Below are positions 2,905 to 23,914 of a DNA stretch of 64,000 bases, in pieces. Origin of the DNA: a virus (Duplodnaviria; Caudoviricetes); the IMG/VR virus record IMGVR_UViG_3300014204_000011, positions 21,751-85,750 of that record; one strand, given 5' to 3'. The translations under genes and the position numbers were made by a program. The notes under the pieces were generated by a model that searched no databases, had not been told where the DNA came from, and was given only the letters and a program-made list of their open reading frames with translations. The number at the start of each line of letters is the position of its first letter. Position 1 is the stretch's first letter.

Positions 2905-4293
2905 ATGCCTGATGATAAAGACCAACAACATGAAGTCAAAGAAGAAAGATATGTTGAAGATTTAATTCTTTATTATCAGACTTATGTAAATGCGGTTATA
3001 AATGAAATATTTGTAGGTATAGGCATAAGTCTTGGTCAGACAGAAAAACAAGCTTATGCAATGGCTAAGACAGATCCTAAAAAACTTGAAAAAGCATTTT
3101 TTAAAGATGTATTTGAAAAGTTTAAAAATGTATTCAAACATAAAATTCCTAAATTCAGATTAAAACAAAATATATTTAACAAAGGCAAGCCATTAACCGA
3201 AAAGCAATGGGATGTTATAAGTAAAGCAATAGCTGAATACTGGAAACAAAATACTTCCAAAGTCACTGAAGATGTAACTGTAAAAGGTTATGTGCTAGGC
3301 ATAAAATCCTCTAAATATCGTAAAACTAAAATTGATAACACTAAGAAAACCTTACCTGAAATAATCAAACATGAAGAAAAGGAAAGCGGAAAAAAATTTG
3401 CAGATAAGTTTGAAGAAGCTTATAAACGCTATGATTTTAAAAATAGTGAAAAAAATGCTATGAACAGGGCTTTTTCAAATATAGCTATGCACGTTTCTGA
3501 TACTGGTGATGGAGTTAAGCAAGCCATAAGAAAAGTTGTTACTGAAGGTATAAATGAAGGTAAAAGTCCGGTTGAAACTGCTTCAGATCTATATTGGAAT
3601 ATTCAGAAAGAAACCGGTAATGAAACTGCTGAAAGTGTAAGAAAAAATTGGAATAGGATTGCTGCAACAGAAATGAATTCAATATTTGAAGCCGGTATTT
3701 TAGCTCCTTATGAAGCACAGGCTATGGAAAGCTTGAAGACCGGTAAGGGTGTTTATTTTGTCAGAGTAAACGGAACGTGCGATTGGTGTAAACCAAGACA
3801 GGGTACTATAGTTAGATTAGTTCCTACAAGCATAGTAGGTGATGTAAATGATGACAGTTTAAAATCTATGGGTATTGATGATCCCTATACCGATATAGCT
3901 ATATGGGTAGGTAAAAACAATGTAGGTAGGAAAAAACAGGACTGGCTTATATGCTGTCCTGCTCACCCATTTAACAGAGCAAGCTTTTCACTTATTGATT
4001 TAGATACACAAGAATATGAACCTAAATTTGGAAGAGTAGTTAATAAAGTTCCTGAAAGTTTAAAACAATATGGAATTAAAAGAGATACATCTTTTGCAAC
4101 TCCGGAATATAAAGAAAGTAAAAAACCGGTTAAAATAGGTGATAATCTTGTAAGATTTTATGATAGTGTTTATGAAGCTGTAGACAAAGAAAATTATAAT
4201 AAGAAATTAGAATTATGGAAAAAAGATCCATCTCAACCTATACCTGTTAGTCGTAGCAGTACAGATTATAAACATATTTTTGGTGATTTATAA
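2905..4293 (+). CDS. MuF-like head morphogenesis protein
   Basis: WNRIAATEM, CDWC and CPAHPFNR motifs typical of MuF/SPP1 gp7. Contains an LEKA site at 3085-3096. Confidence 0.8.
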   Translation: MPDDKDQQHEVKEERYVEDLILYYQTYVNAVINEIFVGIGISLGQTEKQAYAMAKTDPKKLEKAFFKDVFEKFKNVFKHKIPKFRLKQNIFNKGKPLTEKQWDVISKAIAEYWKQNTSKVTEDVTVKGYVLGIKSSKYRKTKIDNTKKTLPEIIKHEEKESGKKFADKFEEAYKRYDFKNSEKNAMNRAFSNIAMHVSDTGDGVKQAIRKVVTEGINEGKSPVETASDLYWNIQKETGNETAESVRKNWNRIAATEMNSIFEAGILAPYEAQAMESLKTGKGVYFVRVNGTCDWCKPRQGTIVRLVPTSIVGDVNDDSLKSMGIDDPYTDIAIWVGKNNVGRKKQDWLICCPAHPFNRASFSLIDLDTQEYEPKFGRVVNKVPESLKQYGIKRDTSFATPEYKESKKPVKIGDNLVRFYDSVYEAVDKENYNKKLELWKKDPSQPIPVSRSSTDYKHIFGDL

Positions 4294-6923: not shown

Positions 6924-8936
6924 ATGAATAGAGATCAAATAATTGATTTAATAGATAGACAAATAGACTTTACTGATATGAAAAAAGCTGGTCTTGCACT
7001 GCAAAAACATTATGAAATTAATTCAAGACGCATGGAAGCAATAGATGTTAAAAACTGTCTTGCTAATGGTCATCCAATTGCCATACAGGGAAAATTGATT
7101 ATTGGTTATGATATGCAAAAAGCTTTTGAAAGTAGTGATAGCGAATTTTTTGATATAGAAAGACCGGTTGAAGCTATTGAAATTGTTGAAACTCTTCCAG
7201 AGCGAGAATATTTCGCTATTGTAGGTCGTAACGAATGGGGAGATATTTCAGAATTTAATAATATCATAGGTGATTTAAGACTTGGTGAAATATATCTGCC
7301 TAAACATTCTGCAATATTCAACTTCTTAAATCCTACGGAAAAGACTAAAAAAGAAAAAATTCAAAGTGTTCTTAACGGAGTTCAAGTAATTGTTTATGAA
7401 AGAGAAAACTATGTAGATAACTGCTTCCATGAGATCGGACACCTGTTCTGGAGAACTTGTACAAGATTTGAAGAAAAGATGCAATTTAAAGAATTATTTA
7501 AACATTTACGAACATCTTGTATTTATGAATACGAATGGGAGCGAAGTACGGAAGAAGAGGTTTTTTGTACAATTTATAAATGGTATATGAAGTCTGTGCT
7601 TATAAACAAGAGTTTTTACAACATACTTGAATACGAAGAAAGCTATGGACTTAAATTATTACAAAGTGTTTTTGACCGTATCGCTAAAGAACGGATCATT
7701 GACGATATATGGGAAATGAGCAAAGAAGATGTTATTGAATATTTAAACCCTCCCCTGGATAAAACGACCGGAAAATATATTCGTAAATCAGGTATGTTTG
7801 ATAAGATTAAAGATATAGAACTGCCTGAAAGCATATTGAACCGGATTGAAAGCGTACAGAATGGACAGGCTTTTGTTGGGCTTGGTAAAGCCGTAGTGCC
7901 GGTTAATAATAATCTGATTGATTTTGATAGAATTAAAATGATACCTTTGGAGAAAGCTAATGGTAAACCAACAATATATCTCGATCAAGATGGAATTGTT
8001 ACAAATTTTGCAGAAGCCTACAAGATAGCCTTTAATCGTGATGTATTTAAAGATGACAGTTTTACAGTGACAGAAATGTGTAAAACTGAGCCAAGATTTT
8101 TCTTAACTATACCAGTATTACAGCGTGGTAAAGAATTATATAATCGCTTGGTTAAAAAGTATAATATAATATTTCTCACAACCGCTATGGATGAACTTGA
8201 ATATTGTAGATCTGATAAAGTGACTTGGCTTAAACAGAATATATGTTCAGAGCCTACAATAATATTTTCTGATAATAAAGCTGATTATGCACATTCTGAA
8301 AAAGATATACTCGTGGATGATATGGCTCATAATTTAACCGCATTTTATGAAGCTGGAGGGACTGCAATCAATTTTAATTCTATGTCGAATGATGAGATAA
8401 TGCAAAAGATTGCAGAGACATTAAATCCACAGGAAGAAATAAGACAGATAAAGCAACAAATTAAAGAAATGAAAGTTAATGTAGAGCCGAGTGAAAAACA
8501 AAAAGAGAATGGAAATTACGCTAAAGGAAAAATAATATTTAAACAGATACCAATAACTATAGAAAATCCAAAGGGAAGTATAAGATCAGGCATAGGCGCA
8601 AACGGTGTGAAATGGTTGTCTAAAATGAGTTCACACTACGGATATATTAAAGGTACTGAAGGCAATGATGGAGATGAAATTGATTGCTTTATTGGAGATG
8701 ATTTCAGCACAAACAAAGCCTTTGTTGTAAACCAGGGTTTTAATAATTTATTCGATGAGCATAAAATTCTCCTCGGTTTTAATACAATAGAGGATGCCAG
8801 AACCGCTTTTCTGAAATGTTATTCTAAAGGTTGGGAAAAGAATATCATGAACATAGTACCGACCAATACAAAAGTGTTGAGACAGTGGCTAAAGACCGGC
8901 AATTATAAAGAGCCGTTTAGTGGTGAGTTTAAATAA
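6924..8936 (+). CDS. Polyvalent protein: zincin metallopeptidase + HAD 5'(3')-deoxyribonucleotidase-like + inorganic pyrophosphatase-like domain
   Basis: HEIGH at 7428-7442. TIYLDQDG...LVDDMAHN HAD motifs. ITIENPKGSIRSG...HYGYIKGTEGNDGDEIDCFIG...DEHKILLGF InPase motifs. Confidence 0.85.
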   Translation: MNRDQIIDLIDRQIDFTDMKKAGLALQKHYEINSRRMEAIDVKNCLANGHPIAIQGKLIIGYDMQKAFESSDSEFFDIERPVEAIEIVETLPEREYFAIVGRNEWGDISEFNNIIGDLRLGEIYLPKHSAIFNFLNPTEKTKKEKIQSVLNGVQVIVYERENYVDNCFHEIGHLFWRTCTRFEEKMQFKELFKHLRTSCIYEYEWERSTEEEVFCTIYKWYMKSVLINKSFYNILEYEESYGLKLLQSVFDRIAKERIIDDIWEMSKEDVIEYLNPPLDKTTGKYIRKSGMFDKIKDIELPESILNRIESVQNGQAFVGLGKAVVPVNNNLIDFDRIKMIPLEKANGKPTIYLDQDGIVTNFAEAYKIAFNRDVFKDDSFTVTEMCKTEPRFFLTIPVLQRGKELYNRLVKKYNIIFLTTAMDELEYCRSDKVTWLKQNICSEPTIIFSDNKADYAHSEKDILVDDMAHNLTAFYEAGGTAINFNSMSNDEIMQKIAETLNPQEEIRQIKQQIKEMKVNVEPSEKQKENGNYAKGKIIFKQIPITIENPKGSIRSGIGANGVKWLSKMSSHYGYIKGTEGNDGDEIDCFIGDDFSTNKAFVVNQGFNNLFDEHKILLGFNTIEDARTAFLKCYSKGWEKNIMNIVPTNTKVLRQWLKTGNYKEPFSGEFK

Positions 8937-9706
8937 TGCTTTATTTAAAGGTTGGTGAGAACAAATATATAAAGCTTGAAAGTCTTGAAAAGGCTAGAAG
9001 TCATAAATATGTAAGTAGAAAGCCTGATGGAAAGGGTGGGTGGAAATATTTTTATGCGGATAAAGATAATAAACCTTCGGTAAGAATGGCTAATTACAAT
9101 GACAAATCTTTAAGAATTTATAACAATTTTGAAGGTAATATTTTTAGTGAAAGGCATGGAATAATACAATCAACAAGTAAACAGTCTATCATTAAAAGTA
9201 TTGAAGTTGAAAAAGAAATTGTTAAGAATACAGATTTTGAAACCGGCGCAGCTTTTGACAAAAATGGGAAACTTCTAATAAAGAAAAAAGGTGTTTATGA
9301 TAAAGTTAATTTTGTAGATCCTGAATACAGAATAATAAATGGTTCGGAAATTTTTACACATAATCATCCAGAAGACAAATCTTTTAGTGATGACGATCTT
9401 ATTTTCGCTCTTGTTTTAGGCATTAAAGAAATGCGAATTATATCTCCCTTAAAAACATATTCTTTTAAAATTAGCCATAAAAATAAATCTAAAGATTTAC
9501 AAGAACTTTCTGATAATATAAAATATTATCAGAAAAAAATAATTCAACATCAAAAAATTATTCAATCTGAGAATAGTGATTTAATGAATCAAAATCCTGA
9601 TGAATATTTTTTAAAAAAAGATCATAAAGTGATAGAATCACTAAAGAATGATTCTAATTTTTTAAAACATTTTAACATAAATTACGAGGTAAAAAATAAT
9701 GAATGA
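8936..9706 (+). CDS. Leader-bearing protein with JAB/MPN-like domain
   Basis: 20-aa leader ending LEKA, then RSHKYVSRKPDGKGGWKYFY. ETG...HNHPEDKSFSDDD metal-binding motif. Confidence 0.75.
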   Translation: MLYLKVGENKYIKLESLEKARSHKYVSRKPDGKGGWKYFYADKDNKPSVRMANYNDKSLRIYNNFEGNIFSERHGIIQSTSKQSIIKSIEVEKEIVKNTDFETGAAFDKNGKLLIKKKGVYDKVNFVDPEYRIINGSEIFTHNHPEDKSFSDDDLIFALVLGIKEMRIISPLKTYSFKISHKNKSKDLQELSDNIKYYQKKIIQHQKIIQSENSDLMNQNPDEYFLKKDHKVIESLKNDSNFLKHFNINYEVKNNE

Positions 9707-9869
9707 TAATTTTTTTAATCCCATAAGTAAGGAAACGAAAGAAAAAGGTTTTTTTTCTTTAGGAGGTATGGAAAAAGATATAAAGAGGCAAGAAGAATTA
9801 AAGAATATAAACCTTAAAGATTTGGAAAAAGAAATAGAAGAACTGGAGAAGAGATTGGATCATGAATAA
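9699..9869 (+). CDS. 56-aa hypothetical coiled-coil peptide, missing from the ORF track
   Basis: GAGG RBS; MNDNFFNPISKETKEKGFF...LEKRLDHE; overlaps both neighbours. Confidence 0.55.
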   Translation: MNDNFFNPISKETKEKGFFSLGGMEKDIKRQEELKNINLKDLEKEIEELEKRLDHE

Positions 9870-10050
9870 TATTGAAATAAAAAATCCTGAAGTCCATATT
9901 GACGGATCTTCTAATAAATTATTTTATATTTTTGCAGATAAAGTCTTTAAAACAGGTAATAATCAAACCGAAAAAGAACAGCTAAAAGTTAAAATCAATA
10001 AATCAATACTTAATATCGAAGAAAAAAATATGCTATTAGGTTTTTTATGA
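9862..10050 (+). CDS. Hypothetical protein
   Basis: Overlapping operon organisation. Confidence 0.55.
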   Translation: MNNIEIKNPEVHIDGSSNKLFYIFADKVFKTGNNQTEKEQLKVKINKSILNIEEKNMLLGFL

Positions 10051-10325
10051 CAGATTTAGAGAGTAGAAATTATCGTAAAGTTTTTCATCCAAATGGAATG
10101 AGTATAGATACTATAGATATGAATGAATCTTTTAAATGGGAGAAATCTTGTGAATATAGTTTTTCTGAAAAATCAAAACTTATAACTAAGATATTAACAA
10201 AATATGGTATTGAGGATGAAATAATAGTTCAAAGATTAAAGAAATGTTTACCAAAAGGTAAAAATGAATTTTTATCTTATACAGATAATGAATACGAATC
10301 ATTAATAAAGGAGTTTAACTTATGA
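10047..10325 (+). CDS. Small protein, paralog of 14306..14611 (candidate immunity/partner)
   Basis: Shares SEKSK, R[LI]KKCLP, DNEY and KEFNL with the paralog. Confidence 0.7.
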   Translation: MTDLESRNYRKVFHPNGMSIDTIDMNESFKWEKSCEYSFSEKSKLITKILTKYGIEDEIIVQRLKKCLPKGKNEFLSYTDNEYESLIKEFNL

Positions 10326-13300
10326 AAACAAAAATAGACTTCTCGCTCTATACTCCTCAGATGTTGCGTGATCAGATTCAAGAAGAGCTTTTAAAAGTCG
10401 ATGATGCAAAGCAAGCGTCATACAATGCAATTGTTTTTCTCAATAATTTATATGGAGCAAAGAACATGCAGAAGGCAAAAGAACTTTCCAAACTTATAAA
10501 AAAACAAATTATTGATAAAACTGGTAAATCAACTACAGTTTATGTCAAACCCGAAGGATCTAAAACTGAATGGCTAAATAAATTCATTAGTTTCTTTGGA
10601 TTTAGTAATGCAGGTCAAGCTAATCAGCGTATTGAACAGGATTATAAAAAGCTTGAACTTGATAAAAAAGGCGTGACCTGGTCAGATTGGAAAAGTCATG
10701 TAAGTGAATATTTCAGCAATAAAGATAAATGGGACAGATTTTTTTCAGGTAAATCTTCAGAGAAAAAAGCTACAGAAAAAAAAGAAGATGCAAAAGCAAA
10801 GAAAGCTGAAAAGAAACCGGTTAAGCAGACTTTTAAATTATCTCTCATGAAAGTAGTTGCAGGATTGTACGGTAAAGCTCCGGAGAAGAAGAAAGAAGAA
10901 CCGGTAAAGGCGGTTGAAAAACCCATTGAAAAACCTATCGAAAAGCCAGTCGAAAACAATTTTGATACTATGCCAGAAACCGTTGCAGAACCTGAACCAG
11001 AACCAGTTAAAGAAGAGCCTGTTAAATCAGGTGAAGAAACTCTTCAGGGTAAATTCGATAGATGGAAAACAGGAGATTTAACAGGTGTTGAAGGTCATAA
11101 ATTTAATATGACTAAAACTATGATGGGTAAAGGTGGTCCTAAAACATTTTTTAATGAAATTATTATAGAGAAAATATCAAATGGATTTATGAGTTATGTT
11201 GATGCTGTAGGTGGTAGGGAAAGTTTTTCAGGTGGCATTTCTGAAAAAGGGTTTATTAATGATTTAAAAAATGGTTCGATGATTCCCGTAGGTCTGGAAA
11301 AAACCATTGATACCGGTAACGGATCTAAGATTGAAGCTGTTAAAGCCTACACTCCTGAACAGAGAAAAGAGGTTAATGCCGATGCTAAAGAAGCGGCGAG
11401 AGAGGGTTATTTTAACGAACGACCGGCTGAGATATTAAATGTCGGTAAAGATGTATGGGGTGCAGCTAGACATAATTATGATACTTATCAGCAAATGAAC
11501 GCTGATGTAAATCAAATGGAAAAAGAAGGAACTGCACAAGCATATGTAACAAAGAAGAACCTTTTCGGAGATTATGGACTTGCCAATAAAGATGAAAGAG
11601 TTGGCAAAGGTGAAACCGAATATAAGGTATTAGCAAGTTTTGTAATGAGAGAATATCTTTCTAAAATGCCTCCGAATAATCCTACAGATAGAGCAATGTA
11701 TATGGATTTTTGTCGTGCCATTTCAAGACTTGATCAAAATACAACTGATGCTAAAACATTTTATTTTGGTATGGCTGAGACTTTTGCTCAGATGTTTCCG
11801 ATAGAAGCACAAAAACCAGCCACTCCTGGACAGGGTATAAGCGTACTTGATATGATACCACAGAATAGAAAAGGTAAAAAACCTGAAGACATTATAGGCC
11901 CTGTTCTTACGGCTTTATTCTATTCACTGAATCAGCAGGCTAATCAGAGCCGGAACATATATTACGGTATGGATAAGAAAGAACGTAAGCAGATGGATGT
12001 AATGAGTGCAGCACTTCTAGCTGAAATCGGTAAGACTAATAAGACTTATAATGAACTTGAAGTTATGATTTTTGGAGAAACAAAACTATCCGGCATTAAA
12101 ATGAAAAAAGGTGATGCGGTTGTGTTTGCTGAAAATCTTGCTGATCATGTTTATGCTATAAGAATAGATTATGCTAGTGATGAAGATAAATTAAAGCATG
12201 ATGCTTTAATAAAAGAAATTAATAATATTGGAGCAGATGGTCATTTTCTATATCTTTCAAATAAAGAAAAAGAAAAGAAATTACCTGAACTCAATAAGAA
12301 ATATGGAACTAATTTTACTATGGATAAATCGTGGGAAGTTACGAAATATATAGATGAATTAGTAAGAGAAAAATCAGTTGAAGCTGCTAAATATAGAATA
12401 AGAACTAAAATTTTCCCAGAAGAAAAAGGACAGATTATAAAAGTTGGTAAAAGTGATATAGAGGTTGCATTCAAATTTCCTAATGGAACAATTAAAGGTT
12501 TTAGAATGAAACCAAGTGAATTAAAACCTGAGAATGTAGAATCTATTTCAAAAGACATAAAAAGGAAAGAGACACTAATATTGAATCTTGCCGTTGAAAA
12601 AAAAGTAATTCGTAAAGGTGGTAAAGATTTCTCAGGTCTTTCAATTACTGAACTTCAAAATAAACTTACCGAAGATTTTAAATTCAAAGCTATTCAGTAC
12701 GGAAACAGTGTACCAGATGACGAAAGACAGTATCATACACAATGGACTCTTGAATCAATGTCTGATCTTGAAGATATTACAGGCATACCATTAGAGCAAC
12801 TTACAGCACGGGGTAAACTTGGTATAGCTTTTGGAGCAAGAGGTAAGCCTATCCCTGGAATTGGAGCAGGTGCTTTAGCTCATTATGAACCTACAACTAA
12901 AATGATAAATATTACCCGTGCCAATGGTTACGGCAGTCTTGCTCATGAGTGGGCGCATTTCGCCGATAATATTTTATCACCAGATATGAATGATTATATT
13001 ACTATTCAGCCCAAAGCTATTGTAAAAGAAGTAAACTCTTCTAATATTAAAATAGGTTCGATTTATGAACACGAAACAAGGAAAGGTAAAAAGACAATTA
13101 CAGAAAGATACTATTATGATGGTAAAGATCCAGAATGGCCTTTTGCTAAATTAAATAATGGTCAGAGTGAACCCGATAGTAAATCAATGCACTCTAACTT
13201 TTATAAATTTAAAAACGGGCAATCTCTAAAAGTTTTAGAACCTGATAATTTACCTTTTATGGAGATAGCTTCTAAAATTGCAAGATTATCACAACAGTCT

Positions 13301-13678
13301 TTGCACGATCAAGCCAATAAGATCGATGATGGAATAAACAAAAAGCATATATTAGAAGATCCATATTTAAATGACAGAAAAGAATGTTTCGCCAGAGCTT
13401 TTGAAATATATATTGCAGATAAACTCAAAGAAAAGGGAAGAGTGAATACATATCTTGTAAGTCATAGAAAAACATTTGAACAGGATGGAGCTTCAATTTA
13501 TCCGCAGGGAACATTTAGAACCGAAATAAACAAAATGTTTGATGAGTTTTTTATAGAAATAAACAAAAATCAGGAGATGAAAAAAGCAATAGACAAATTA
13601 TTAAAACAGAATAAAAATGTTTATATAAAGAAACTCAATCCCATAACTCAAAAGCCCGAATACAGGAAGGTAAAGTGA
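10322..13678 (+). CDS. Large polyvalent protein with C-terminal LPD1-like metallopeptidase region
   Basis: AIQYGNSV, GKLGIAFGARG, AHYEP, GSLAHEWAHFAD (HEWAH 12944-12958), ECFARAFE, YPQG. MQKA at 10466-10477 and MKKA at 13577-13588. Confidence 0.85.
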   Translation: MKTKIDFSLYTPQMLRDQIQEELLKVDDAKQASYNAIVFLNNLYGAKNMQKAKELSKLIKKQIIDKTGKSTTVYVKPEGSKTEWLNKFISFFGFSNAGQANQRIEQDYKKLELDKKGVTWSDWKSHVSEYFSNKDKWDRFFSGKSSEKKATEKKEDAKAKKAEKKPVKQTFKLSLMKVVAGLYGKAPEKKKEEPVKAVEKPIEKPIEKPVENNFDTMPETVAEPEPEPVKEEPVKSGEETLQGKFDRWKTGDLTGVEGHKFNMTKTMMGKGGPKTFFNEIIIEKISNGFMSYVDAVGGRESFSGGISEKGFINDLKNGSMIPVGLEKTIDTGNGSKIEAVKAYTPEQRKEVNADAKEAAREGYFNERPAEILNVGKDVWGAARHNYDTYQQMNADVNQMEKEGTAQAYVTKKNLFGDYGLANKDERVGKGETEYKVLASFVMREYLSKMPPNNPTDRAMYMDFCRAISRLDQNTTDAKTFYFGMAETFAQMFPIEAQKPATPGQGISVLDMIPQNRKGKKPEDIIGPVLTALFYSLNQQANQSRNIYYGMDKKERKQMDVMSAALLAEIGKTNKTYNELEVMIFGETKLSGIKMKKGDAVVFAENLADHVYAIRIDYASDEDKLKHDALIKEINNIGADGHFLYLSNKEKEKKLPELNKKYGTNFTMDKSWEVTKYIDELVREKSVEAAKYRIRTKIFPEEKGQIIKVGKSDIEVAFKFPNGTIKGFRMKPSELKPENVESISKDIKRKETLILNLAVEKKVIRKGGKDFSGLSITELQNKLTEDFKFKAIQYGNSVPDDERQYHTQWTLESMSDLEDITGIPLEQLTARGKLGIAFGARGKPIPGIGAGALAHYEPTTKMINITRANGYGSLAHEWAHFADNILSPDMNDYITIQPKAIVKEVNSSNIKIGSIYEHETRKGKKTITERYYYDGKDPEWPFAKLNNGQSEPDSKSMHSNFYKFKNGQSLKVLEPDNLPFMEIASKIARLSQQSLHDQANKIDDGINKKHILEDPYLNDRKECFARAFEIYIADKLKEKGRVNTYLVSHRKTFEQDGASIYPQGTFRTEINKMFDEFFIEINKNQEMKKAIDKLLKQNKNVYIKKLNPITQKPEYRKVK

Positions 13679-14322
13679 CTAACAGACTTATAATTAAACT
13701 GGCTGATGGTCTTTATATAGATTTAAGTAAAGCCCGAAGTCATAAATATATCAGTCGCAAACCTGATGGTAAAGGAGGTTGGATTTATACTTATTATAAA
13801 AAACCTGTTGGAAATAGTTATGCTGTAAATTATAATGATATGAGAGATTTTGATTATGAAAAAGCAGTTCAAATATATAAAGATACAGAATCTATAAGAA
13901 ATATTAAAAATTATGAACATTCAAAAATATATGATAATAAAGGGATAGTGTTACTTTATAAAATATTTCCTAAAACTGGAGGGAGTTTTACTAATGAAGA
14001 ATTAAATAAAATTGAAAATTCAAAATTATTAATACATAATCATCCTTCAGGAGATTCTTTTTCCACAAAAGATATTCAGTTAATTATCGAAAAAAATATA
14101 AATGAAATTAGAGCCATAGGTCAAAAAGAAAAAACAAAAACTATTTTTTCTTTAAAATTGGAAAAACAAATTCCAATTGAATTAAAAAGAGATTTATTGA
14201 ATTACCATTTTAGCTTATGGAATATAAATAAAACAACTGGAGATAAATTTTTTGCTCATAAAACAATGCAAGATTTTATAAAAGTTTATGGAGAATATTT
14301 TAAATATGAAAGAATTAAATAA
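13675..14322 (+). CDS. Leader-bearing protein with JAB/MPN-like domain, paralog of 8936..9706
   Basis: GTG start. 20-aa leader ending LSKA, then RSHKYISRKPDGKGGWIYTY. YEH...HNHPSGDSFSTKD. Confidence 0.75.
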   Translation: MTNRLIIKLADGLYIDLSKARSHKYISRKPDGKGGWIYTYYKKPVGNSYAVNYNDMRDFDYEKAVQIYKDTESIRNIKNYEHSKIYDNKGIVLLYKIFPKTGGSFTNEELNKIENSKLLIHNHPSGDSFSTKDIQLIIEKNINEIRAIGQKEKTKTIFSLKLEKQIPIELKRDLLNYHFSLWNINKTTGDKFFAHKTMQDFIKVYGEYFKYERIK

Positions 14323-14611
14323 AAAAGATTTTAAAAGAAATAAAATTTATCATGAATTGTTTTATCCAAATTCGCCTTTAGGTTTAGATGGAGAAGAAAT
14401 GTCTTCTGAAAAATTTGCGGAAAAAATAAAATCTTCTAAAATATCTGAATCAGAAAAAAGTAAAATAATTAAAATATTGATACAAAATTATGATTTTATA
14501 GATAAAAATATATACAACAGAATAAAAAAATGTCTACCAAATGGATTTAATTCAATGTATTCAATAGAGGATAACGAATATTTTGAATTAAAAAAAGAGT
14601 TTAATTTATAA
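14306..14611 (+). CDS. Small protein, paralog of 10047..10325 (candidate immunity/partner)
   Basis: Overlaps the JAB gene end; GGAG RBS before ATG 14306 (14288 is an alternative start). Confidence 0.7.
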   Translation: MKELNKKDFKRNKIYHELFYPNSPLGLDGEEMSSEKFAEKIKSSKISESEKSKIIKILIQNYDFIDKNIYNRIKKCLPNGFNSMYSIEDNEYFELKKEFNL

Positions 14612-14652
14612 AAAAACATGAATATTATTAATAAAATGGAAGGTTAAATAAC

Positions 14653-17600
14653 ATGGCAAATAAAATATTTTTTAAAACAGTTGAAGGTAAATATGTATCA
14701 CTTGATAAAGCTTCAAATCCCGAAGATAAAGTTCGTAAGGTTATGGGTGAGTTTAAAAGAGGTACTTTACATTCCAGTTCCGGTCAAAAGGTAACTTCAA
14801 AAGACCAGGCTTTGGCAATCGCAATGTCGGAGAGTGGATTATCTAAACAAATGGTTGCTGATATTCTTATTGATTATGATGATATGGAAAAAGCAAGTCA
14901 GATAAAAGAAGGGATTAAAGTAGAAAAAGAACATATTCCTACTATGAAATATATTAAAGATAAGTTTGGAAAATATCATAAAATGGCTAATACTGAAGAT
15001 ATTGCCGAGCACATCGCCGGAGACCATCTTGAAGAGATAAAAGATTATTATACAAGATTACTTGAAATGGAAAAACAGGCTAAAGGCGATAAAAAAAGAC
15101 CTCAAATCGAAATTGATGTAATTAAATTTTTAATTGATAATCCGAATCCTGCGGATAGTAAAGTTCATACTTTTAGTGATAAAATAGGCATAGACACACA
15201 TAAACTTGAAGCGATATTCTATAAACTTGCTACTGAAAGAGCTGAAATGAGTAAAGACATGCAGAAAGCTAAGTCTGCAATAGGTACTACTGCAACTTGG
15301 GCTGACGGTAAACAATATCGTAAAGTAGCTGAAGGTCAATGGGAACAGGTTAAGGGTGACGGTAAAAGCCATAATGCTAAATTAGGTGGCGGAGCACATG
15401 GTTATGGCAAACACGATGTAAGTACAGCACCGAAGCTTCATAAGAGATTTATGGATTATCTACAGAACATGAGCCAGGAACATCGGGACATATTCAGAGG
15501 CGGTAAGTTTGATTTTGAAAAGAAAACATTTACAGCTATAGGCGGTAAAGTAGCTTTGCTTTGGAAAGATGATAAAGTTAATATTGTTAAGACTGATAAA
15601 ATGGATAAAGCCCGTGTGACCAAATATATAAAAAGAGTGCCGAAGCCGTCAGGTAAGGGTTATTATTATTTCTATACAAAGCAGCAGTTTAACCAGTATA
15701 AAGAGACTGGAAAAGTTCCTGAACAAGAAAAAGGCGATTCAGCTTTACAAAAGATATTCAAATTTTTAGGTGTTGATAATTGGATGGACGGTAGTAAAAA
15801 AATAGGTTCAATATACGAATCTAATAAAAGCTCTCTTCTTGAAAATAATGTCGATAAAAAGACTTTTGCTGAATACAGTGTAGAATACTTATCTAATAAG
15901 GAAAAATGGGATTCTCGTTTAAGTGGTGAGAAAAAAGAAAAGTCAGAGTCAAAGCCTAAGTCTGAACAGCCTAAATCTGAGAAAAAAGAGAGTGGTGATA
16001 AAAAAGAAGGTAAATGGAACATGGGTGTAATGCGAGCTATTGCAGGGATTTATGGAAGCGGAGAAATAAAGAAAATTGATACAGAAATGCCTATGCCTAC
16101 TACTCCCAACAAAAAAGATGATAAGAATAAAAAAGATAAGGAAGCCCCTAAAAAAGGTTTTGAAGATGAGCTAAATGAACGGGAAAAAGAAGGTAACAAT
16201 AAAACTTATACTAATAAGATAAAGCAATTACAAAATGAAATAAATAGTTTTTCCAAAACAGCTTCCGGAGGAAGTAAATATTCTCTTGATTCTAAAGGAA
16301 ATGAAGATTCTGGAGAAATGTCTATTCAATTAAAAGATAGTGTATCTGGTAAAATTATTCCTAATACACAAATAACTGGTAAAATTAAAGATTTTTTAAA
16401 TATTAAAAATCAATTGATTGAAAAAATGAAAGAAATAGACAGTAATGACAAATCCCCTGACAACTTCGATACTATGCCGGAGGGGGACGATATAGAAAAA
16501 GGCATAGAGGATTATTATAAAAAAATTACAGAAGAATTTAGTAATGAAAAACCTGATTTAAATAAAATCAAGAAAGTTGCTAAAGAAAAAGCTGATAAAA
16601 TAAATTCAATTATGAATAAAGAAATTTCTTTAGATACAGGCGGAATAGTTAAGTCAAATAAGAAGTTTATACTTGAAAAATATGATCCAAAAGAAGATAA
16701 AATGACTTTTAAAGATAATAACGGAAAAACTCAGGAAATAACTTTTTCTAAATTTGAAAAAGAAAATCCTAAATTTTTTAACAGTCAAAAACCCTCCGCA
16801 ACCGAAGCACTGAAAACTTTTACGATAGTAGATAATAATAATCCTGAAAGAACCGTAAAAGTGCAAGCTAAAGATGAAAATGAAGCTAAAGATAAAGGTG
16901 CTTCAGAACTTAAAACTACAAACATAAGAACTTATGAGTCAAGTAATAAAGTAGAAGCACTGAAAGATGAGTTGGGGAAGAAAAAGAGCGAGAGTAGAGA
17001 AAGAGAAATAACTGTTTTTGGTAAACAGCAAAAAGTTAAAACTAAGCCGATAGAATTAAACTTGGGATATGGTCATCCTTTTGAGATTGCTAAAAGAGAA
17101 TTTGGAAGTGGTCGCTCAGATTGGATTATTCTTGAAAGTAGTACGGGTTTAAAGGTTGGAGATGGCAAAACTCAAAAAGAGGCTATTAGTAACGCTGAAT
17201 CTATGATAAAAAATTATACTCCAACAGAGAATGAATTTAAAAAATTAATTGAAAAAAGTTTATCTTCCGAAAATGTTTTAAAACGTGAAAAAGAAATAGA
17301 AAAAAATAAAGAAATAGATAAAAAAGTTGAAAAAGATTTTGAAGATAAATCTGAAAAAGGCCAGTCCCAAATAAAGAAAAACGAAGAAGATGATAAGCGA
17401 AAACAGGTTCAAAAAGATAAATTAAATTCTTCAGATCCACAGAAAAAATATGATGCAATGAAGGAAGAAATTAGAGATTTTTCAGAAAGAAATAATATAT
17501 CTGAAAAAGAAATAACAAAAGAATGGATAAATGAAGAAAGAAAACGTTTTCAACAGGATATAAAAGATGCTTATAAGTATAAAAAACCGAAAGAAGCTGG

Positions 17601-18111
17601 AGTTTATAAAGTTGGATTAAAAGAACTTGATAATATTGAAAAATATCAAAAAGAAATGATTTCTTTAAAAGAAGAACTACTCGGCCCGAAAATGTTCAAA
17701 GCCCTGTCAAATCTAAGAGAAGAGTTAATGTTTAAAGCCCAAACTACAAAATATATTAAAAGAATACCCGATCCAAAAGGCAAGGGATATATTTACTTTT
17801 ACACACAAGATCAGGTTAAAGCATATCAGAAAGATGGAACTATACCAAATCAGCAGAAAAAGCCTAAGACTAAACCAGAACAAGGTGGTAAAACTAACAT
17901 AGAAAAGCTTAAAGAAACTACAAAAAAAATAGCCACTATTGTTGCTGATGCTTTAAGTGCTAAAGATGCGGTAAATCCTGCTGGACAGGCAGTAGAACAA
18001 GCCGGAGAAGATATAAACGAAAAGAACAAAATGAAAAAAAGACTTGAAGAAAAGCAAGTACCTGATAAAAAGAAACAAGTTAATAAACCGGAGGAAAAAC
18101 CGAAAAAGTGA
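14653..18111 (+). CDS. Large multi-module polyprotein (DUF6496-like, DUF5661-like, repeated KY modules), likely internal virion protein
   Basis: KVMGEFKRGTLHSSSGQKVTSKDQALAIAMSE; GIKVEKEH...DHLEEIKDYYTRL; IGTTATWADGKQYRKVAEGQW; two KYIKR.P.P.GKGY.YFYT modules; five or more [LM]xKA sites. Confidence 0.75.
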   Translation: MANKIFFKTVEGKYVSLDKASNPEDKVRKVMGEFKRGTLHSSSGQKVTSKDQALAIAMSESGLSKQMVADILIDYDDMEKASQIKEGIKVEKEHIPTMKYIKDKFGKYHKMANTEDIAEHIAGDHLEEIKDYYTRLLEMEKQAKGDKKRPQIEIDVIKFLIDNPNPADSKVHTFSDKIGIDTHKLEAIFYKLATERAEMSKDMQKAKSAIGTTATWADGKQYRKVAEGQWEQVKGDGKSHNAKLGGGAHGYGKHDVSTAPKLHKRFMDYLQNMSQEHRDIFRGGKFDFEKKTFTAIGGKVALLWKDDKVNIVKTDKMDKARVTKYIKRVPKPSGKGYYYFYTKQQFNQYKETGKVPEQEKGDSALQKIFKFLGVDNWMDGSKKIGSIYESNKSSLLENNVDKKTFAEYSVEYLSNKEKWDSRLSGEKKEKSESKPKSEQPKSEKKESGDKKEGKWNMGVMRAIAGIYGSGEIKKIDTEMPMPTTPNKKDDKNKKDKEAPKKGFEDELNEREKEGNNKTYTNKIKQLQNEINSFSKTASGGSKYSLDSKGNEDSGEMSIQLKDSVSGKIIPNTQITGKIKDFLNIKNQLIEKMKEIDSNDKSPDNFDTMPEGDDIEKGIEDYYKKITEEFSNEKPDLNKIKKVAKEKADKINSIMNKEISLDTGGIVKSNKKFILEKYDPKEDKMTFKDNNGKTQEITFSKFEKENPKFFNSQKPSATEALKTFTIVDNNNPERTVKVQAKDENEAKDKGASELKTTNIRTYESSNKVEALKDELGKKKSESREREITVFGKQQKVKTKPIELNLGYGHPFEIAKREFGSGRSDWIILESSTGLKVGDGKTQKEAISNAESMIKNYTPTENEFKKLIEKSLSSENVLKREKEIEKNKEIDKKVEKDFEDKSEKGQSQIKKNEEDDKRKQVQKDKLNSSDPQKKYDAMKEEIRDFSERNNISEKEITKEWINEERKRFQQDIKDAYKYKKPKEAGVYKVGLKELDNIEKYQKEMISLKEELLGPKMFKALSNLREELMFKAQTTKYIKRIPDPKGKGYIYFYTQDQVKAYQKDGTIPNQQKKPKTKPEQGGKTNIEKLKETTKKIATIVADALSAKDAVNPAGQAVEQAGEDINEKNKMKKRLEEKQVPDKKKQVNKPEEKPKK

Positions 18112-18341: not shown

Positions 18342-18410
18342 GTACTCTAAATAATAAACAAATAATCCAGCCGTTACAAGGAAATGTTTATTTCTCTAAA
18401 GAGAGGTAAA

Positions 18411-19295
18411 ATGTTTTTTCAGATTAACGGCTTAACCATCCAAAACCTACAAAAAGCTTCAGACGACAAGCTTGTTAAAGTTGATATTATAGCCAATCAT
18501 CTTACCGAAGATAGTGACGGAGAAGTAATACTCAAAGAAGCATTTTCTCCCGAAGTTATCAATGATTTTCTTTCGACCGGCGTAATTAATTTCTGGCATG
18601 ATAATAAAAATCCTCTCTTATCAAAAGAAGAGCAAATGAACGCTTTACTTGGTAAACCCATAGCTTTTAGATGGGAGAATGGAAAGCCTGTAGTTACTGC
18701 ACAACTTACTAAATCACATCCTATCGTACAAACAATGATGCCTCATCTTGAAGCAGGTAATCCTGTGTATAGCGCAAGCGTAGATGGATCTAAAATGGTT
18801 ATGCTTGTAGAAAATAGTGAAGGTGAGAAAAAGAAAGTCATACCTAAAATCAAATGGAACGGACTTGCCATAGCCCCCTGTAATTCAGTAATCAATCGAG
18901 AACCAGGTGTTAATGTTAAATTGTTAAGTAAGGCAAATGATATAATTGCTGAATTTAACGATATGGATAGCTTTAAAATGATGTCTGGACAGATCTTCTC
19001 CCAAGAAACCGAACTCCGTAAAGCTTTATCTGCCCCTGAAAGTGTAGGTGATATGCAAAACACTTCAGGAGGAGTTATAACAAAACAAGATTTAGAAAAA
19101 AGCGTTACATCTTTAACCTTTTCCGAGGATGAAGCATGTAATCTTATAGATACAATATTAGGTATTAAAAATGGTTCGATACCAATAACAATAAATGAAT
19201 ATAAGAACCATTTTAAAAATAATGAAGAATTTGCTGATAAGTCTTATCGGCTGTTCGATAAATATTTCAAAAAAAACAACAAGGAGCAATCGTAA
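18411..19295 (+). CDS. Prohead maturation protease
   Basis: EDSDGEVI, INFWHD, YSASVDG, WNGLAIAP resemble Twort/SPO1-like proteases; directly upstream of scaffold and capsid. ATG 18411 has a GAGAGG RBS. Confidence 0.8.
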   Translation: MFFQINGLTIQNLQKASDDKLVKVDIIANHLTEDSDGEVILKEAFSPEVINDFLSTGVINFWHDNKNPLLSKEEQMNALLGKPIAFRWENGKPVVTAQLTKSHPIVQTMMPHLEAGNPVYSASVDGSKMVMLVENSEGEKKKVIPKIKWNGLAIAPCNSVINREPGVNVKLLSKANDIIAEFNDMDSFKMMSGQIFSQETELRKALSAPESVGDMQNTSGGVITKQDLEKSVTSLTFSEDEACNLIDTILGIKNGSIPITINEYKNHFKNNEEFADKSYRLFDKYFKKNNKEQS

Positions 19296-19296
19296 C

Positions 19297-20076
19297 ATGA
19301 TAACAAAAGAAGAATTGTTACAGAAAGGAATTGATCCTGCCGAAGCTGATAAGATAATTTCGGCTCTCGAAGGACAAGCTGAAAATTCCTCTCCCCTTGA
19401 AGCTCTAAATAAGGCTCTAAAAGATGATTCAGAAATGGATTCTCTTTTTAAAGCAGCCAAAAAGGGAGAGGGTGATGAGGATGACGAAGAGGATGAAGAG
19501 GAATATGACGAAAAGTTCATGAAAAAGATGAAAAAGTACATGAAGTCAAAAGGCAAAGAAGACAGTGGTGATGACGATGACGACAAAGGCTTTTTCGGAA
19601 AAGAAATGAAAAAAGCTGTTGATGACATTAATCCTGATTCAGATGGACTTGTTATTGAAATGGCTGATTTTAAACCGGTTTTTGAGTCTATGGTATCGAC
19701 AATACAAAAGATGTCAAAAGCTATATCCGGACTTGAAAGAAAGGTTGAAGTTCTTTCAGAGCAAAACTCTGATTCTTACAGTCTTTTGGCTAAAGCTGCT
19801 GCTGTTACTGCCGAAACTGCGGAGATTGTAACTGGAATGGGTAATATTCCGGCTGGAAGAAAAGGTGCTTTAATAGCAGACATGAAAAAAGCTAAACAAG
19901 TCGAAAATGTAGATCCTCAAAAAGTTTGGACAGCTCTCGCTAAGGCTGTAAATGCCGGTGATTTGAAAGCTGGAGAAATTGGATCTAAATTTGAAAGTGC
20001 TGGAAAAAGATTCGGTTTTCTATCTGATCCAGAACAGGCTTATGTTATGGAACTTATGAAAAAGGAGGCTAACTAA
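19297..20076 (+). CDS. Capsid scaffolding protein
   Basis: Acidic and helical with many KA sites, between protease and capsid. AAGGAG RBS favours ATG 19297. Confidence 0.75.
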   Translation: MITKEELLQKGIDPAEADKIISALEGQAENSSPLEALNKALKDDSEMDSLFKAAKKGEGDEDDEEDEEEYDEKFMKKMKKYMKSKGKEDSGDDDDDKGFFGKEMKKAVDDINPDSDGLVIEMADFKPVFESMVSTIQKMSKAISGLERKVEVLSEQNSDSYSLLAKAAAVTAETAEIVTGMGNIPAGRKGALIADMKKAKQVENVDPQKVWTALAKAVNAGDLKAGEIGSKFESAGKRFGFLSDPEQAYVMELMKKEAN

Positions 20077-20077
20077 G

Positions 20078-21592
20078 ATGGATGAACTATATATGTTAGC
20101 AGAAAACGGGATGGGGGACATGGGGCTTGGCTCTCTATCGCAACTTGAAGCATTAAGTAAAGCTCTTTCTGCCCCTGCGAGTTATACAGATCTTTATACA
20201 ACTCCAGGTGGCTCACTTACAATGCAATCATTGGAAATGATGCTTGCAACTCTTACTCTTAAAGCTACTGATTTTACTCTATGGCAGGATATGAACAAGA
20301 TGAAAGCATATTCTACTGTTGAAGAATATGATCAGCAGACTGGTCTTGGTATCTCTGATGGTGGATTTGTTGACCAATTCAGCAATCCTACATTTCAAGA
20401 CGCTGATTTTATCAAACAAATCTCAATTGTTAAGTTCATGAGAGAAGGTTGGAAGGTTGGTGATGTACAGGAAGCAACCAGAACAACTATAGACATAAGA
20501 ACAAAACAACAGCAAGCTGCTATGGCAAGGATGTTGAGAAACCTTGACCGTGCGCTTTATAACGGTAACTCTGCATGGATTCCTGAAAGTATTGATGGTC
20601 TTGCTAAAACCATTGCTGCTTCTTCTTCAGAACAGATTTATGATATGAGAGGCGGTAATGTAACTATGGGTACATTTAACCTTATCGGTCAGCTTATCAC
20701 TGAAGGAAATGGTCAGGTAGAAAATGCGAAAATATATGTTTCTCCGGCTGGAGTTCAAAATCTAAGCACTATTACTGAAGACGGTACTACTGCTGCTAAT
20801 AACAGAAAGATAATGAAATCTGGTGATGCTAATATTACTATCGGTGGTAAAATATCAGGTATTATGACAAATTTCGGTGAGATGAAACCGAGAATGGATA
20901 AAATACTTGGTCTTGAATTTGAAGCACAAGGCGTTCCTAAATACAGGAATAATACTACCGGTCTTTGGGTAGAAGGTGCTACTGCTGATAATGCTCCTTC
21001 AGCTCCGGCGGTTGCTCTTACTGTTAATGCTGTTGGTACAGGCTCTAAGTTTAGCGCAGGTACAACCAGACCTTCAGGCGTTGCATATTCTTATAGAGTA
21101 AGTGCAAGGAATAAATATGGAAGATCAATAGCTTGCGCTGCTGTAACGGCTGGTTCAACTGTAGCTGCCGGTGGATCTATTTCAATTGCTATTACTCCCG
21201 CTGCTGGAGATAGCGGTGCGAAAGTTCCTTCTTGTTTCGTAATTTATGCTAAAAAAACAGAAGATGCGAATAATGATTATAGATACATGGACACAATCGC
21301 TGCGGATGCAACTAATCCTCTTGCTGCCGTAACATATGAAGATAAAAATCTTTATATACCAGGTACAGCGAGAATGTATGTTATAGACCAAACTACACAG
21401 GGAGAAAGCAGAGTTCTTTCTTATGCTCAGTTACTTCCTATTCACAACACAGATCTTGCTAAAGTCGGGCCTTATAGCCAGGGACTTATCAATCTGTATG
21501 GTACTATGAAATATTACAAGCCGAATGTTCTTGTTGAAATCAGAAATATCGGTGTATCTCAGACAAATGCAAATCTTTACAATGTAGTTTAA
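20078..21592 (+). CDS. Major capsid protein (Twort/SPO1-like)
   Basis: Propeptide ending LSKA; SLTMQSLE, AYSTVEEY, SIDGL; FN3-like insertion YSYRVSARNKYGRS; LINLYG. Confidence 0.9.
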   Translation: MDELYMLAENGMGDMGLGSLSQLEALSKALSAPASYTDLYTTPGGSLTMQSLEMMLATLTLKATDFTLWQDMNKMKAYSTVEEYDQQTGLGISDGGFVDQFSNPTFQDADFIKQISIVKFMREGWKVGDVQEATRTTIDIRTKQQQAAMARMLRNLDRALYNGNSAWIPESIDGLAKTIAASSSEQIYDMRGGNVTMGTFNLIGQLITEGNGQVENAKIYVSPAGVQNLSTITEDGTTAANNRKIMKSGDANITIGGKISGIMTNFGEMKPRMDKILGLEFEAQGVPKYRNNTTGLWVEGATADNAPSAPAVALTVNAVGTGSKFSAGTTRPSGVAYSYRVSARNKYGRSIACAAVTAGSTVAAGGSISIAITPAAGDSGAKVPSCFVIYAKKTEDANNDYRYMDTIAADATNPLAAVTYEDKNLYIPGTARMYVIDQTTQGESRVLSYAQLLPIHNTDLAKVGPYSQGLINLYGTMKYYKPNVLVEIRNIGVSQTNANLYNVV

Positions 21593-22598: not shown

Positions 22599-23531
22599 AT
22601 GACCTGTTCTAATTTAGTAGGTTTTGCTTTTAATAATCCTGATATTACCAATGATTATCACGCCCCCAAATGGGGGCTTTTGGTAAGTCCTCATGAACTT
22701 CGATATGATGAACTTTTCGGAAACCCATTAATAGCCGAAGCTGATTCTTTTACATTTACAGATGAACAATTAATGGATTATGCTAGAACTGCTATAGGAT
22801 TTATGGAAAGAGAATTAAATATTGATATATTACCGAGACTTATAAGATATAGAGATCCGATTGATTCTAATGGAAATGAATTAGCCAGAACTGATATTGA
22901 TGATAGTGCATATCTAACATCTCTAAAAACAGGAAAACAAAAAAATGCTCTTTATATTAGAGAATTAGGATATGGATATAAAATAATTCAGGCAAGGCAC
23001 GAAGCCAGGGTTAAATTGAGGAGAAGACCTGTTCGAGCAGTATTATCGGCTAAATTTTCTACGCCGTATATTGATACTACTGCAATAGATCTTATGCCTT
23101 TTCGTATGTTAAAAAAAGATTTTTCTGGAGTTCTAACCTTTAGACCAAACAGAACACCTTTAAGAAGTTTAGGTTGGGATCAGGTTTGGCAGACATATTT
23201 ACTTGCTCCATATCTTCGAGATTTACAGGATATATTTTTAATAGATTATACAACTGGTTATGAAAATTGTGAAGATGTTCCAGAAGACATAAGGTATATA
23301 ACAAAAAGAATAGCTGCATGTACTCTTATGGCTACATATGGAGATGGAAAAATGTCATCCATAGCAAGCAGATCTGTAAACCTAAACTCAGTAAGTGAGG
23401 CTATTTCAACTACAATGTCTGCAACTTCCGCAGCTTTTGGAGCTAGAATTTTACAATATCAAAAAGAAATAAAAACATGGTTCGCTACTAATCGCCAAAA
23501 ATACAGTAATACAAGTATAGGTGTTTTATGA
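22599..23531 (+). CDS. Head-tail adaptor (neck 1)
   Basis: IGFMERELNIDI, DYTTGY, VPEDI, SRSVNLNSVSE, FGARILQYQKEI resemble myovirus adaptors. Confidence 0.7.
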   Translation: MTCSNLVGFAFNNPDITNDYHAPKWGLLVSPHELRYDELFGNPLIAEADSFTFTDEQLMDYARTAIGFMERELNIDILPRLIRYRDPIDSNGNELARTDIDDSAYLTSLKTGKQKNALYIRELGYGYKIIQARHEARVKLRRRPVRAVLSAKFSTPYIDTTAIDLMPFRMLKKDFSGVLTFRPNRTPLRSLGWDQVWQTYLLAPYLRDLQDIFLIDYTTGYENCEDVPEDIRYITKRIAACTLMATYGDGKMSSIASRSVNLNSVSEAISTTMSATSAAFGARILQYQKEIKTWFATNRQKYSNTSIGVL

Positions 23532-23914
23532 TAACTCAATCTTTTAAAAATGGTAAATCTGAAATAAGATTTGAAAATGCAGAATCTATGGAAGATGCGA
23601 AAAAAAACGGATTTACTGATGGAGTATATACCAGGTTTTTTATAGATAATAAACCGGTTCAAAACTATATGGCTTTAATGCAATATATTGTAGATGAAAC
23701 AAGAAAAACCGGTAAGCGTTTTATACCTCCTACTCATGAAGATTTAAAGAATTTACAAAAAAAAGTTATACAAACTCAAAATAACGAAATGAGAACACAA
23801 ATACAAAACTTGAAAAATCAATATATTCAAATGAACGCTCCAGAGCATGTTTTAAAACAACTTGATGAAGCTATAGATAAAATAGATTTAGTTGGCATGA
23901 GAGTAGTTCAATAA
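23528..23914 (+). CDS. Hypothetical protein
   Basis: Coupled ORF. Confidence 0.55.
   Translation: MITQSFKNGKSEIRFENAESMEDAKKNGFTDGVYTRFFIDNKPVQNYMALMQYIVDETRKTGKRFIPPTHEDLKNLQKKVIQTQNNEMRTQIQNLKNQYIQMNAPEHVLKQLDEAIDKIDLVGMRVVQ

Follow-up and report, generated by a model that had tools for sequence, protein, structure and literature searches.

What is the role of two predicted enzymes that lie among the cargo genes of a phage, each of them starting with a short leader and each accompanied by a small gene of a common family? The question is raised by a stretch of 64,000 nucleotides (the window) from the Caudoviricetes record IMGVR_UViG_3300014204_000011 of IMG/VR (positions 21,751 to 85,750), which encodes the two proteins, here JAB-A and JAB-B, and two small ones, partner-A and partner-B (coordinates in Table 1). 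The initial annotation had described two leader-bearing proteins sharing the motif E...HNHP-x3-SFS-x2-D and otherwise divergent, and proposed that they are packaged JAB-like effectors with unpackaged inhibitors. The reading we favour, with a probability of roughly one half, is that of a packaged JAB hydrolase clade whose short B-type members have the partner as an inhibitor.

Both open reading frames (ORFs) exist as described, and their products are paralogs (32% identity, E 7e-19, BLASTP) that have HNHP-x3-SFS-x2-D in common. The leader is also common to both, consisting of LxKA followed by KYxSRKPDGKGGWxYxY, and its DNA is 76% identical over 66 nt, which indicates an ancient duplication preserved through selection at the protein level. 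Only 15 near-length homologues were found among 5.8 billion proteins of a database. In their alignment the residues K19, K24, Y25, P30, G32, G34, G35, Y38 and Y40 of the leader are invariant, as are E92, E102, H142, H144, S149, F150, S151, D154, E165, R167 and K178 of the domain; the set E, H, H, S, F, S and D is invariant among 15-17 homologues. Scanning with a JAB-core profile (a single, narrow motif) yielded 111 related loci, 79 viral and 32 genomic, which form 78 clusters at 90% identity, with conservation of E, HNHPS, SFS and D at 90% or more throughout.

An AlphaFold2 model of the JAB domain, based on the alignment (predicted local distance difference test, pLDDT, 77), places HxH at the close of a strand and S..D at the opening of the following helix. 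When it was compared using VIA-align with 48,161 representative chains of the PDB, ranks 1 to 16 were all JAB/MPN proteins (Z 9.0-6.3, 101-127 residues aligned). The matches include PfJAMM1 (Z 9.0), Cap3 (7.8), the bacterial deubiquitinase for ubiquitin-like proteins (Ubl) 8tyy (7.5), Sst2 (7.4), Rpn11 (7.3), BRCC36 (7.2), RadC (2qlc, 7.2) and BubCD (6.3), with Z values of 7-9 lying in a grey zone where the tool warns of matches that stem from a common arrangement. Foldseek agreed weakly, with AMSH and RadC as best matches (probability up to 0.97, E ~0.01). Besides that grey zone, the following weigh against the assignment: the spacing from His to Ser is x6, one residue shorter than the canonical JAMM x7, and no model of Pfam, NCBIfam or PHROG recognises the domain. 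The RadC profile (PF04002) found no match at E<=1 in the window JABs, nor at E<=0.05 in the fused homologues P0039-P0044 described below; Tox-JAB-1 (PF15659) and Tox-JAB-2 (DUF4329, PF14220) gave no Pfam match in either group, and a profile search of PDB sequences returned a single chance match, so no solved structure was matched at the sequence level. The feature score of the ESM Atlas for the domain was only 0.81 with the RadC cluster and 0.80 with that of DUF4329. Because the list of JAB/MPN matches is uniform and the JAMM residues are invariant, we nevertheless regard as secure, at the level of the model, the placement of JAB-A and JAB-B in the JAB/MPN+ (JAMM) superfamily, as predicted zinc hydrolases. 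The JAB-like identity first proposed is thus upheld by the model and the structure searches.

In other genomes the domain is most often part of a larger protein. The HNHP motif lies 91-161 aa before the C-terminus in 108 of the 111 related loci, and 75 proteins of this C-terminal set reach at least 400 aa. Among ten of the long proteins that we sampled, five carry Phage_Mu_F (MuF), one Phage_min_cap2 (2e-108) and two are without any match. L039, L042 and L050 have HINT-type domains (Hint_2, PT-HINT or Intein_splicing of Pfam) before their C-terminal JAB, together with MuF only in L039 (L042 and L050 have no MuF match); a HINT domain in front of a C-terminal JAB is the self-releasing architecture of polymorphic toxins, with JAB as the apparent payload. 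An independent structure search in the ESM Atlas also listed fusions of JAB to MuF, portal, min_cap2 and VG15 proteins. Further fused homologues combine JAB with ART-PolyVal (P0039), NT5C-InPase (P0040), a RelA_SpoT polyvalent protein (P0041) and a lambda-type portal (P0043). The JAB match in P0039, P0040 and P0041 has E values between 1e-16 and 1e-94, and JAB-A and JAB-B can be seen as solo versions of such a module, which the survey of polyvalent proteins explicitly expects to exist (Iyer et al. 2017, PMC5512222). P0040 is especially telling for JAB-A: it is collinear with the 670-aa protein of the window (43% identity, whole length), and then continues through an in-frame LKA-hairpin junction into JAB, so that JAB-A is best understood as a split-off C-terminal module. 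The JABs of the window are therefore the stand-alone form of a widespread JAB/MPN+ clade that current family libraries miss. We found no description of MuF-JAB or portal-JAB fusions in the open-access literature.

The clade also occurs in contigs of methanogenic archaea, of one Woesearchaeota metagenome-assembled genome and of Saccharibacteria, mostly as short solo proteins. A separate type of JAB is present in the phage protein L135 (814-2049), a polyvalent protein with an N-terminal module, a DUF5661-like region, a hairpin and a JAB of canonical RadC spacing (HNHPSGEIDASNED). In polyvalent proteins, RadC-type JABs had been reported only for conjugative elements (Iyer et al. 2017, PMC5512222).

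These fusions to MuF, minor capsid protein 2, portal and polyvalent proteins are the reason for reading the JAB proteins as packaged and injected effectors, a reading that the origin of JAB-A as a split-off module and the distribution of the leader motif make probable. This part of the initial annotation gains support from all three. The motif [LMIF]xKA stands at aa 17-20 of JAB-A, JAB-B and the 1152-aa protein, and recurs in the head genes: the major capsid protein has it at aa 26-29 (ALSKA↓LSAP), the 303-aa protein close to its C-terminus (ELRKA↓LSAP), and the acidic, scaffold-like 293-aa protein at seven positions. Neither motif nor leader is present in the two partners, and the motif is also missing from the 56-aa and 62-aa ORFs. 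From its sequence context, [LMIF]xKA is a candidate site code of the prohead protease. Since capsid protein, scaffold and candidate protease share it, a targeting peptide of ~19 aa may be removed from the JAB proteins by this protease. Such cleavage is suggested by motif sharing; against it, the 303-aa protein, which by its position and its ELRKA↓LSAP motif is possibly the prohead protease, matched no protease family in library scans.

Directly after the leader comes a hairpin, KYxxRxPDGKGGWxYxY, which is repeated before successive modules in P0039, P0041 (four copies), P0042 and P0044. It is found twice inside the 1152-aa protein of the window, where two internal M-x-K-A sites with hairpins form junctions at aa 317-341 and 1026-1050. 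In a broader form (KYxxRxPxxGKGxxYxY), usually after [LM]xKA, the hairpin also heads RelA_SpoT, Kinase-PolyVal, ART and NUDIX modules. It has the look of an element used generally in phage cargo polyproteins to mark junctions or cleavage sites.

The partners constitute a family of their own. Partner-A and partner-B are homologous (BLASTP 2e-11, 50% identity over the C-terminal 44 aa), and both match the family profile, which includes them, with E values of 1e-42 to 1e-48; the core, KKCLPxGxN...S..DxEY..L..EF, is C-terminal. In an exhaustive profile search of 1.84 billion representatives the family had 19 members of 88-142 aa and no fusions. Viral and metagenome scans for the partner gave only one locus each. 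A blastn comparison with the phage collection had no match. The AlphaFold2 model of the partner is all-helical (pLDDT 68) and has no usable match by VIA-align (best Z 4.5) nor any in the ESM Atlas. Pfam, PHROGs and NCBIfam contained nothing credible for the partners or for the 56-aa and 62-aa ORFs, and no Imm family for the partner. The idea that the partner is the split-off helical insert of A/C-type JABs was rejected (hhalign probability 0.1%).

An intact JAB gene lies upstream of the partner in 14 of 16 contexts, directly adjacent in 11 and indirectly in three. The directly adjacent gene is a B-type JAB (211-221 aa), usually with overlapping frames, in the window (JAB-B) and in L003, L005/6/7 (JAB 51% identical), L010/11, L012 (with two tandem partners), L013, L017, L128 and a contig of ERZ1426851 (no DNA); the indirect contexts are JAB-A of the window, L001 and L014. 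This linkage with overlapping frames is maintained for JABs down to ~30% identity. The initial annotation had each JAB followed by a homologous leaderless gene of ~95 codons: homology and lack of leader are confirmed for both, but only JAB-B directly abuts its partner. The close relative L014 has a B-type JAB whose hairpin is a variant (KLIKKHVVDKNGRVTTVWVKV), and behind it a 164-aa DUF6794 protein (Pfam 1.3e-26) takes the partner's position, a replacement resembling the partner swapping of toxin-immunity cassettes; we found no mention of DUF6794 in the open-access literature.

JAB-A and partner-A are separated by the 56-aa and 62-aa ORFs, each of which overlaps its neighbours. Counterparts of the former follow the A-type solo JAB in L001 (55 aa) and L014 (57 aa), again with an overlap of 8 nt, and this conservation suggests that the 56-aa ORF may be a real neighbour, partner or accessory of JAB-A. 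The link from JAB-A to partner-A is probably an indirect one, a legacy of recombination. We also considered the 62-aa ORF as a JAB remnant like that of L001, and rejected this as neither tblastn nor hidden Markov models gave a signal.

Taken together, the favoured explanation would run as follows. JAB-A and JAB-B would be solo versions of a zinc hydrolase clade carried in the capsid and ejected with the DNA; what elsewhere is the C-terminal payload of MuF, min_cap2, portal and polyvalent proteins would here be split into solo genes. The prohead protease would remove the leader of ~19 aa ending in L-x-K↓A, leaving a mature JAB that begins with the basic beta-hairpin, and after injection the intact E/HxH/S/D centre would hydrolyse a host target. 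The leaderless helical protein of ~95 aa would be a dedicated accessory of the short B-type JAB, binding and silencing it in the producing cell as an immunity protein or inhibitor, and might outlive the enzyme as an orphan. This last part, that the partner binds JAB-B as an inhibitor or immunity protein, is a tentative proposal.

Several observations weigh against that role of the partner and would be expected if it were instead a small late protein with a function of its own (in assembly, regulation or anti-defence, for instance) in a recombination-prone cassette beside the JABs. A/C-type JABs (L002, L003, L010, P0039, P0040), including the N-extended C-type, have no directly adjacent partner. 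Between tail genes, L001 has a cassette of JAB-A, the 55-aa ORF, the leftover C-terminal part of a B-type JAB (60% identity, 5e-20) and the partner; at the same site in L008 the JAB is internally deleted to leader and tail, and in L130, a short contig and a weaker case, the partner comes directly after the tail gene. The JAB is thus replaced, gutted or absent, with the partner intact throughout. No JAB core was detected in the genome that contains L008 (G001, 94% complete) by the same search that finds both JABs of the window genome. Partners kept without a JAB argue for a function not limited to the neighbouring enzyme, and neither fold nor family offers a clue to an inhibitor. The ORFs 3' of MuF-JAB fusions are heterogeneous as well: next to Cys-rich proteins of 66-96 aa (20 members), proteins of 104 aa (16) and acidic ones of 60 aa (10), there are unrelated phage genes, Prp protease and Tad2-like among them, and the 64-aa ORF that follows the portal-JAB fusion P0043 has no homology to the partner. 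On the other hand, an independent protein would hardly be linked through overlapping frames to JABs as distant as ~30% identity in 14 of 16 contexts, nor would its family be confined, over 1.84 billion representatives, to JAB neighbourhoods. Besides, orphan immunity genes are common in toxin-immunity systems, and persistence of the partner does not exclude an inhibitor. We consider the independent protein the less probable of the two. Toxin-immunity pairs would lead one to expect conserved adjacency, which was found, and no partner kept without an effector, whereas G001, and more weakly L130, do keep one. The linkage between partner and JAB is real and specific, yet the partner can be kept without the enzyme, which would fit orphan immunity just as well as an independent function. 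The proposal of a cognate unpackaged inhibitor has circumstantial support in the conserved overlapping linkage in many lineages and in the restriction of the family to it; the partners of L008 and L130 partly realise what the initial annotation had named as evidence against itself, partner homologs independent of JAB genes.

In relatives, the JAB/partner cassette occupies a hot spot between the tail-module genes of 128 aa and ~390 aa and appears there in three stages of decay; the corresponding genes of the window (23528-23914 and 23914-25101) abut, with nothing between them. The Tad2-like (anti-Thoeris) protein of L025 (3684-4250, 8e-26) and the Prp cysteine protease of L021 (3696-4016, 1e-12) are encoded after min_cap2-JAB or solo JAB genes.

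As for the substrate of the JAB, a peptide or isopeptide bond is our tentative first choice and slightly likelier than a nucleic acid or nucleotide, itself a possible target. RadC and two toxin JAB clades have been argued to lack the groove for the Ubl tail and to act on nucleic acids (Iyer et al. 2017, PMC5512222; Zhang et al. 2012, PMC3482391), and the packaged JAB could resemble RadC or Tox-JAB and be no peptidase at all, working in DNA end processing or protection or in degradation of host nucleic acids or nucleotides. JAB-B has a RadC-like HNHPSG signature, RadC (2qlc) is among the structural matches, the related phage protein L135 includes a JAB of canonical RadC spacing, and nucleotide enzymes are found in the cargo nearby (NT5C, InPase) and in homologues (RelA_SpoT, NUDIX). 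The MuF and portal fusion partners, moreover, contact DNA, as in SPP1 gp7. We consider this function somewhat the less probable all the same: the RadC, Toxin-JAB1 and DUF4329 models of Pfam found nothing at E<=1, the best structural neighbours (JAMM1, Cap3, 8tyy and Sst2) are true isopeptidases, and to our knowledge nuclease activity has not been shown biochemically for any JAB.

The neighbours Cap3, 8tyy and BubCD, together with the intact JAMM catalytic set, could also suggest that the injected enzyme clears phage or host proteins of the Ubl tags of defence systems (Bil, Bub or CBASS Cap2 conjugates), the more so as delivery with the DNA would put it in the cell ahead of the defence. Their Z values (7.5-7.8 for Cap3 and 8tyy) are, however, no better than those of RadC (7.2) or the archaeal JAMM1 (9.0), the 19 window proteins scanned gave no match to a Ubl, E1 or E2 family, and the clade is found in phages of very diverse hosts, methanogens and Saccharibacteria included, in which such defences are not known to be general. 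Specific removal of Ubl tags is in our opinion improbable, and so is, to a similar degree, the broader notion of a conflict weapon that either strips such tags or harms cells and competing phages lacking the partner. Still less probable is a peptidase of head maturation or self-processing that cuts polyproteins at the hairpin junctions or trims MuF and portal proteins. It would fit the constant tie of JAB to head-assembly proteins (MuF, min_cap2, portal), the LxKA and hairpin before each polyprotein module, and the proposal that peptidase domains divide polyvalent proteins into separate units (Iyer et al. 2017, PMC5512222). But LxKA is also present in the major capsid protein and the scaffold, which indicates a general prohead protease; a self-cleaving HINT before the JAB of some MuF-family relatives marks JAB as a released payload; the neighbouring cargo proteins already have zincin-type motifs (HEIGH, HEWAH); and a dedicated partner lacking the leader would be superfluous for an enzyme of maturation.

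The packaged hydrolase with its B-type partner, to which we return, has parallels in several known systems. The MuF toxins of temperate phages join a head module to a variable C-terminal enzyme, sometimes through HINT (PMC3482391, PMC5576092), and are often followed by a small ORF of <150 aa that is taken as immunity (Jamet et al. 2017, PMC5576092). JAB homologues share exactly this MuF/HINT/C-terminal enzyme architecture, and a small ORF is likewise directly downstream in the window (partner-B after JAB-B, the 56-aa ORF after JAB-A), whereas the window JABs themselves are solo proteins with a 40-aa leader and no MuF (PF04233) domain. JAB is not among the MuF payloads listed (Zhang et al. 2012, PMC3482391; Jamet et al. 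2017, PMC5576092). Among RHS-type toxins, JAB tips accompanied by immunity proteins have been described as Tox-JAB-1/2 (Zhang et al. 2012, PMC3482391), and there too a JAB with E, HxH, S and D is a delivered conflict effector paired with a small immunity protein. These toxins differ in delivery, which is by RHS and the type II, VI and VII secretion systems, and in having Imm65 or Imm-NTF2-2 downstream, while the window partner belongs to an unrelated all-helical family that matches no Imm family.

The array resembles polyvalent proteins, too, in having early-acting modules of the injected type (InPase, NT5C, LPD1, ART-PolyVal, RelA/SpoT) beside virion genes, and differs in that the JAB is of another clade, not recognised by Pfam; a hairpin junction and a dedicated partner are not described in the available part of that survey (PMC5512222). 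Among the JAMM isopeptidases, PfJAMM1, Cap3 and 8tyy are the best structural matches and have the same metal-binding motif, and the window JABs depart from them in the x6 spacing, in an extra C-terminal helical region and in the lack of any Ubl/E1/E2 family among the 19 proteins scanned. Finally, the internal proteins of T4 carry a short N-terminal capsid-targeting peptide that is cut by the prohead protease at a motif which capsid proteins also contain. The motif of the window, [LM]-x-K↓A, is not the L/I-x-E of T4, and cleavage at it is predicted from sequence. What is new here is a JAB clade probably delivered through MuF, portal or polyvalent proteins or through a leader, with its own partner family.

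The phage genome that holds the window is complete (85,750 bp, with direct terminal repeats), and that of a myovirus-like phage, judging by its major capsid protein (phrog_752) and tail sheath. PHROG matches in the window comprise the major head protein (20078-21592, phrog_752, 2e-69), tail sheath and tail proteins, as well as a weak head-morphogenesis match at 2905-4293; the annotated parts contain no sign of a temperate lifestyle. The region 6924-18111, situated on the + strand past the head-morphogenesis gene and before the capsid genes, consists of translationally coupled genes that encode, in this order, the 670-aa protein, JAB-A, the ORFs of 56, 62 and 92 aa, the 1118-aa LPD1 protein, JAB-B, the 101-aa ORF and the 1152-aa protein. 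Domains of the InPase, NT5C and LPD1 type belong to "polyvalent proteins", argued to be packed in the virion and injected (Iyer et al. 2017, PMC5512222). The 1118-aa protein and N-extended C-type JABs have in common an N-terminal module of ~45 aa (DFSxYxPxxLRxxIxxELxKxxDAKxAxxxAL), possibly another type of element for targeting or docking.

Table 1. Features of the JAB/partner locus, its cargo array and related loci (window positions unless another locus is named).
Feature	Position	Strand	Length	Remarks
670-aa cargo protein	6924..8936	+	670 aa	HEIGH motif, NT5C, polyvalent-type InPase (4e-44); stop overlaps JAB-A start
JAB-A	8936..9706	+	256 aa	leader aa 1-19 ending LEK↓A; hairpin aa 20-40 KYVSRKPDGKGGWKYFY
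JAB-A domain (JAB/MPN+)	aa ~78-256 of JAB-A			E102, H142, H144, S151, D154; long helical insert 186-245
56-aa ORF	9699..9869	+	56 aa	charged, coiled-coil-like; overlaps JAB-A stop by 8 nt
62-aa ORF	9862..10050	+	62 aa	near-identical in L014; no family match
Partner-A	10047..10325	+	92 aa	leaderless; stop overlaps start of 1118-aa gene
1118-aa cargo protein	10322..13678	+	1118 aa	LPD1 at aa 1012-1082 including HEWAH; context, outside the pairs
JAB-B	13675..14322	+	215 aa	GTG start; leader aa 1-19 (LSK↓A); hairpin aa 20-40
JAB-B domain (short B-type)				E81, H121, H123, S130, D133; C-terminal end ...YGEYFKYERIK
Partner-B	14306..14611	+	101 aa	overlaps JAB-B 3' end by 17 nt; alternative ATG 14288 gives 107 aa
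1152-aa cargo protein	14653..18111	+	1152 aa	DUF6496, DUF5661; same leader type (…SLDK↓A)
303-aa protein, acidic scaffold-like protein, major capsid protein (phrog_752)	18384..21592	+	303 aa; 293 aa;	context
Hairpin copies	8984-9055, 13723-13794, 15601-15675, 17728-17802
N-terminal module of ~45 aa	10322-10480; L003 10956-11100; L002 2475-2620; P0039 N-terminus		~45 aa
B-type JAB and DUF6794 protein of L014	L014 13103-14270			variant hairpin
Tail-module hot spot	L001 10001-11466; L008 4710-5249; L130 341-721			equivalent to window ~23914
Archaeal and Saccharibacteria JAB contigs	L097, L100, L104, L108, L113-L116, L118, L125, L127, L109, L117, L119, L120

Effectors packaged in virions decide the first minutes of infection, and few of them have known activities. 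With the present results the JAB superfamily reaches into cargo that phages inject, the clade being coupled consistently to modules of capsid delivery, and its members come from phages or candidate prophages of Bacillota, methanogenic archaea, Saccharibacteria and others. A pair of paralogs, a pair of partners and natural intermediates of decay offer a compact and manageable setting in which to look for the substrate of a delivered JAB, and the same set could show whether lytic phages need inhibitors of their own packaged enzymes inside the cell. Should the JABs prove harmful to cells without the partner, the orphan partners of JAB-less relatives would be immunity against JABs injected by superinfecting kin, and the whole would amount to a capsid-delivered toxin-immunity system between lytic phages.

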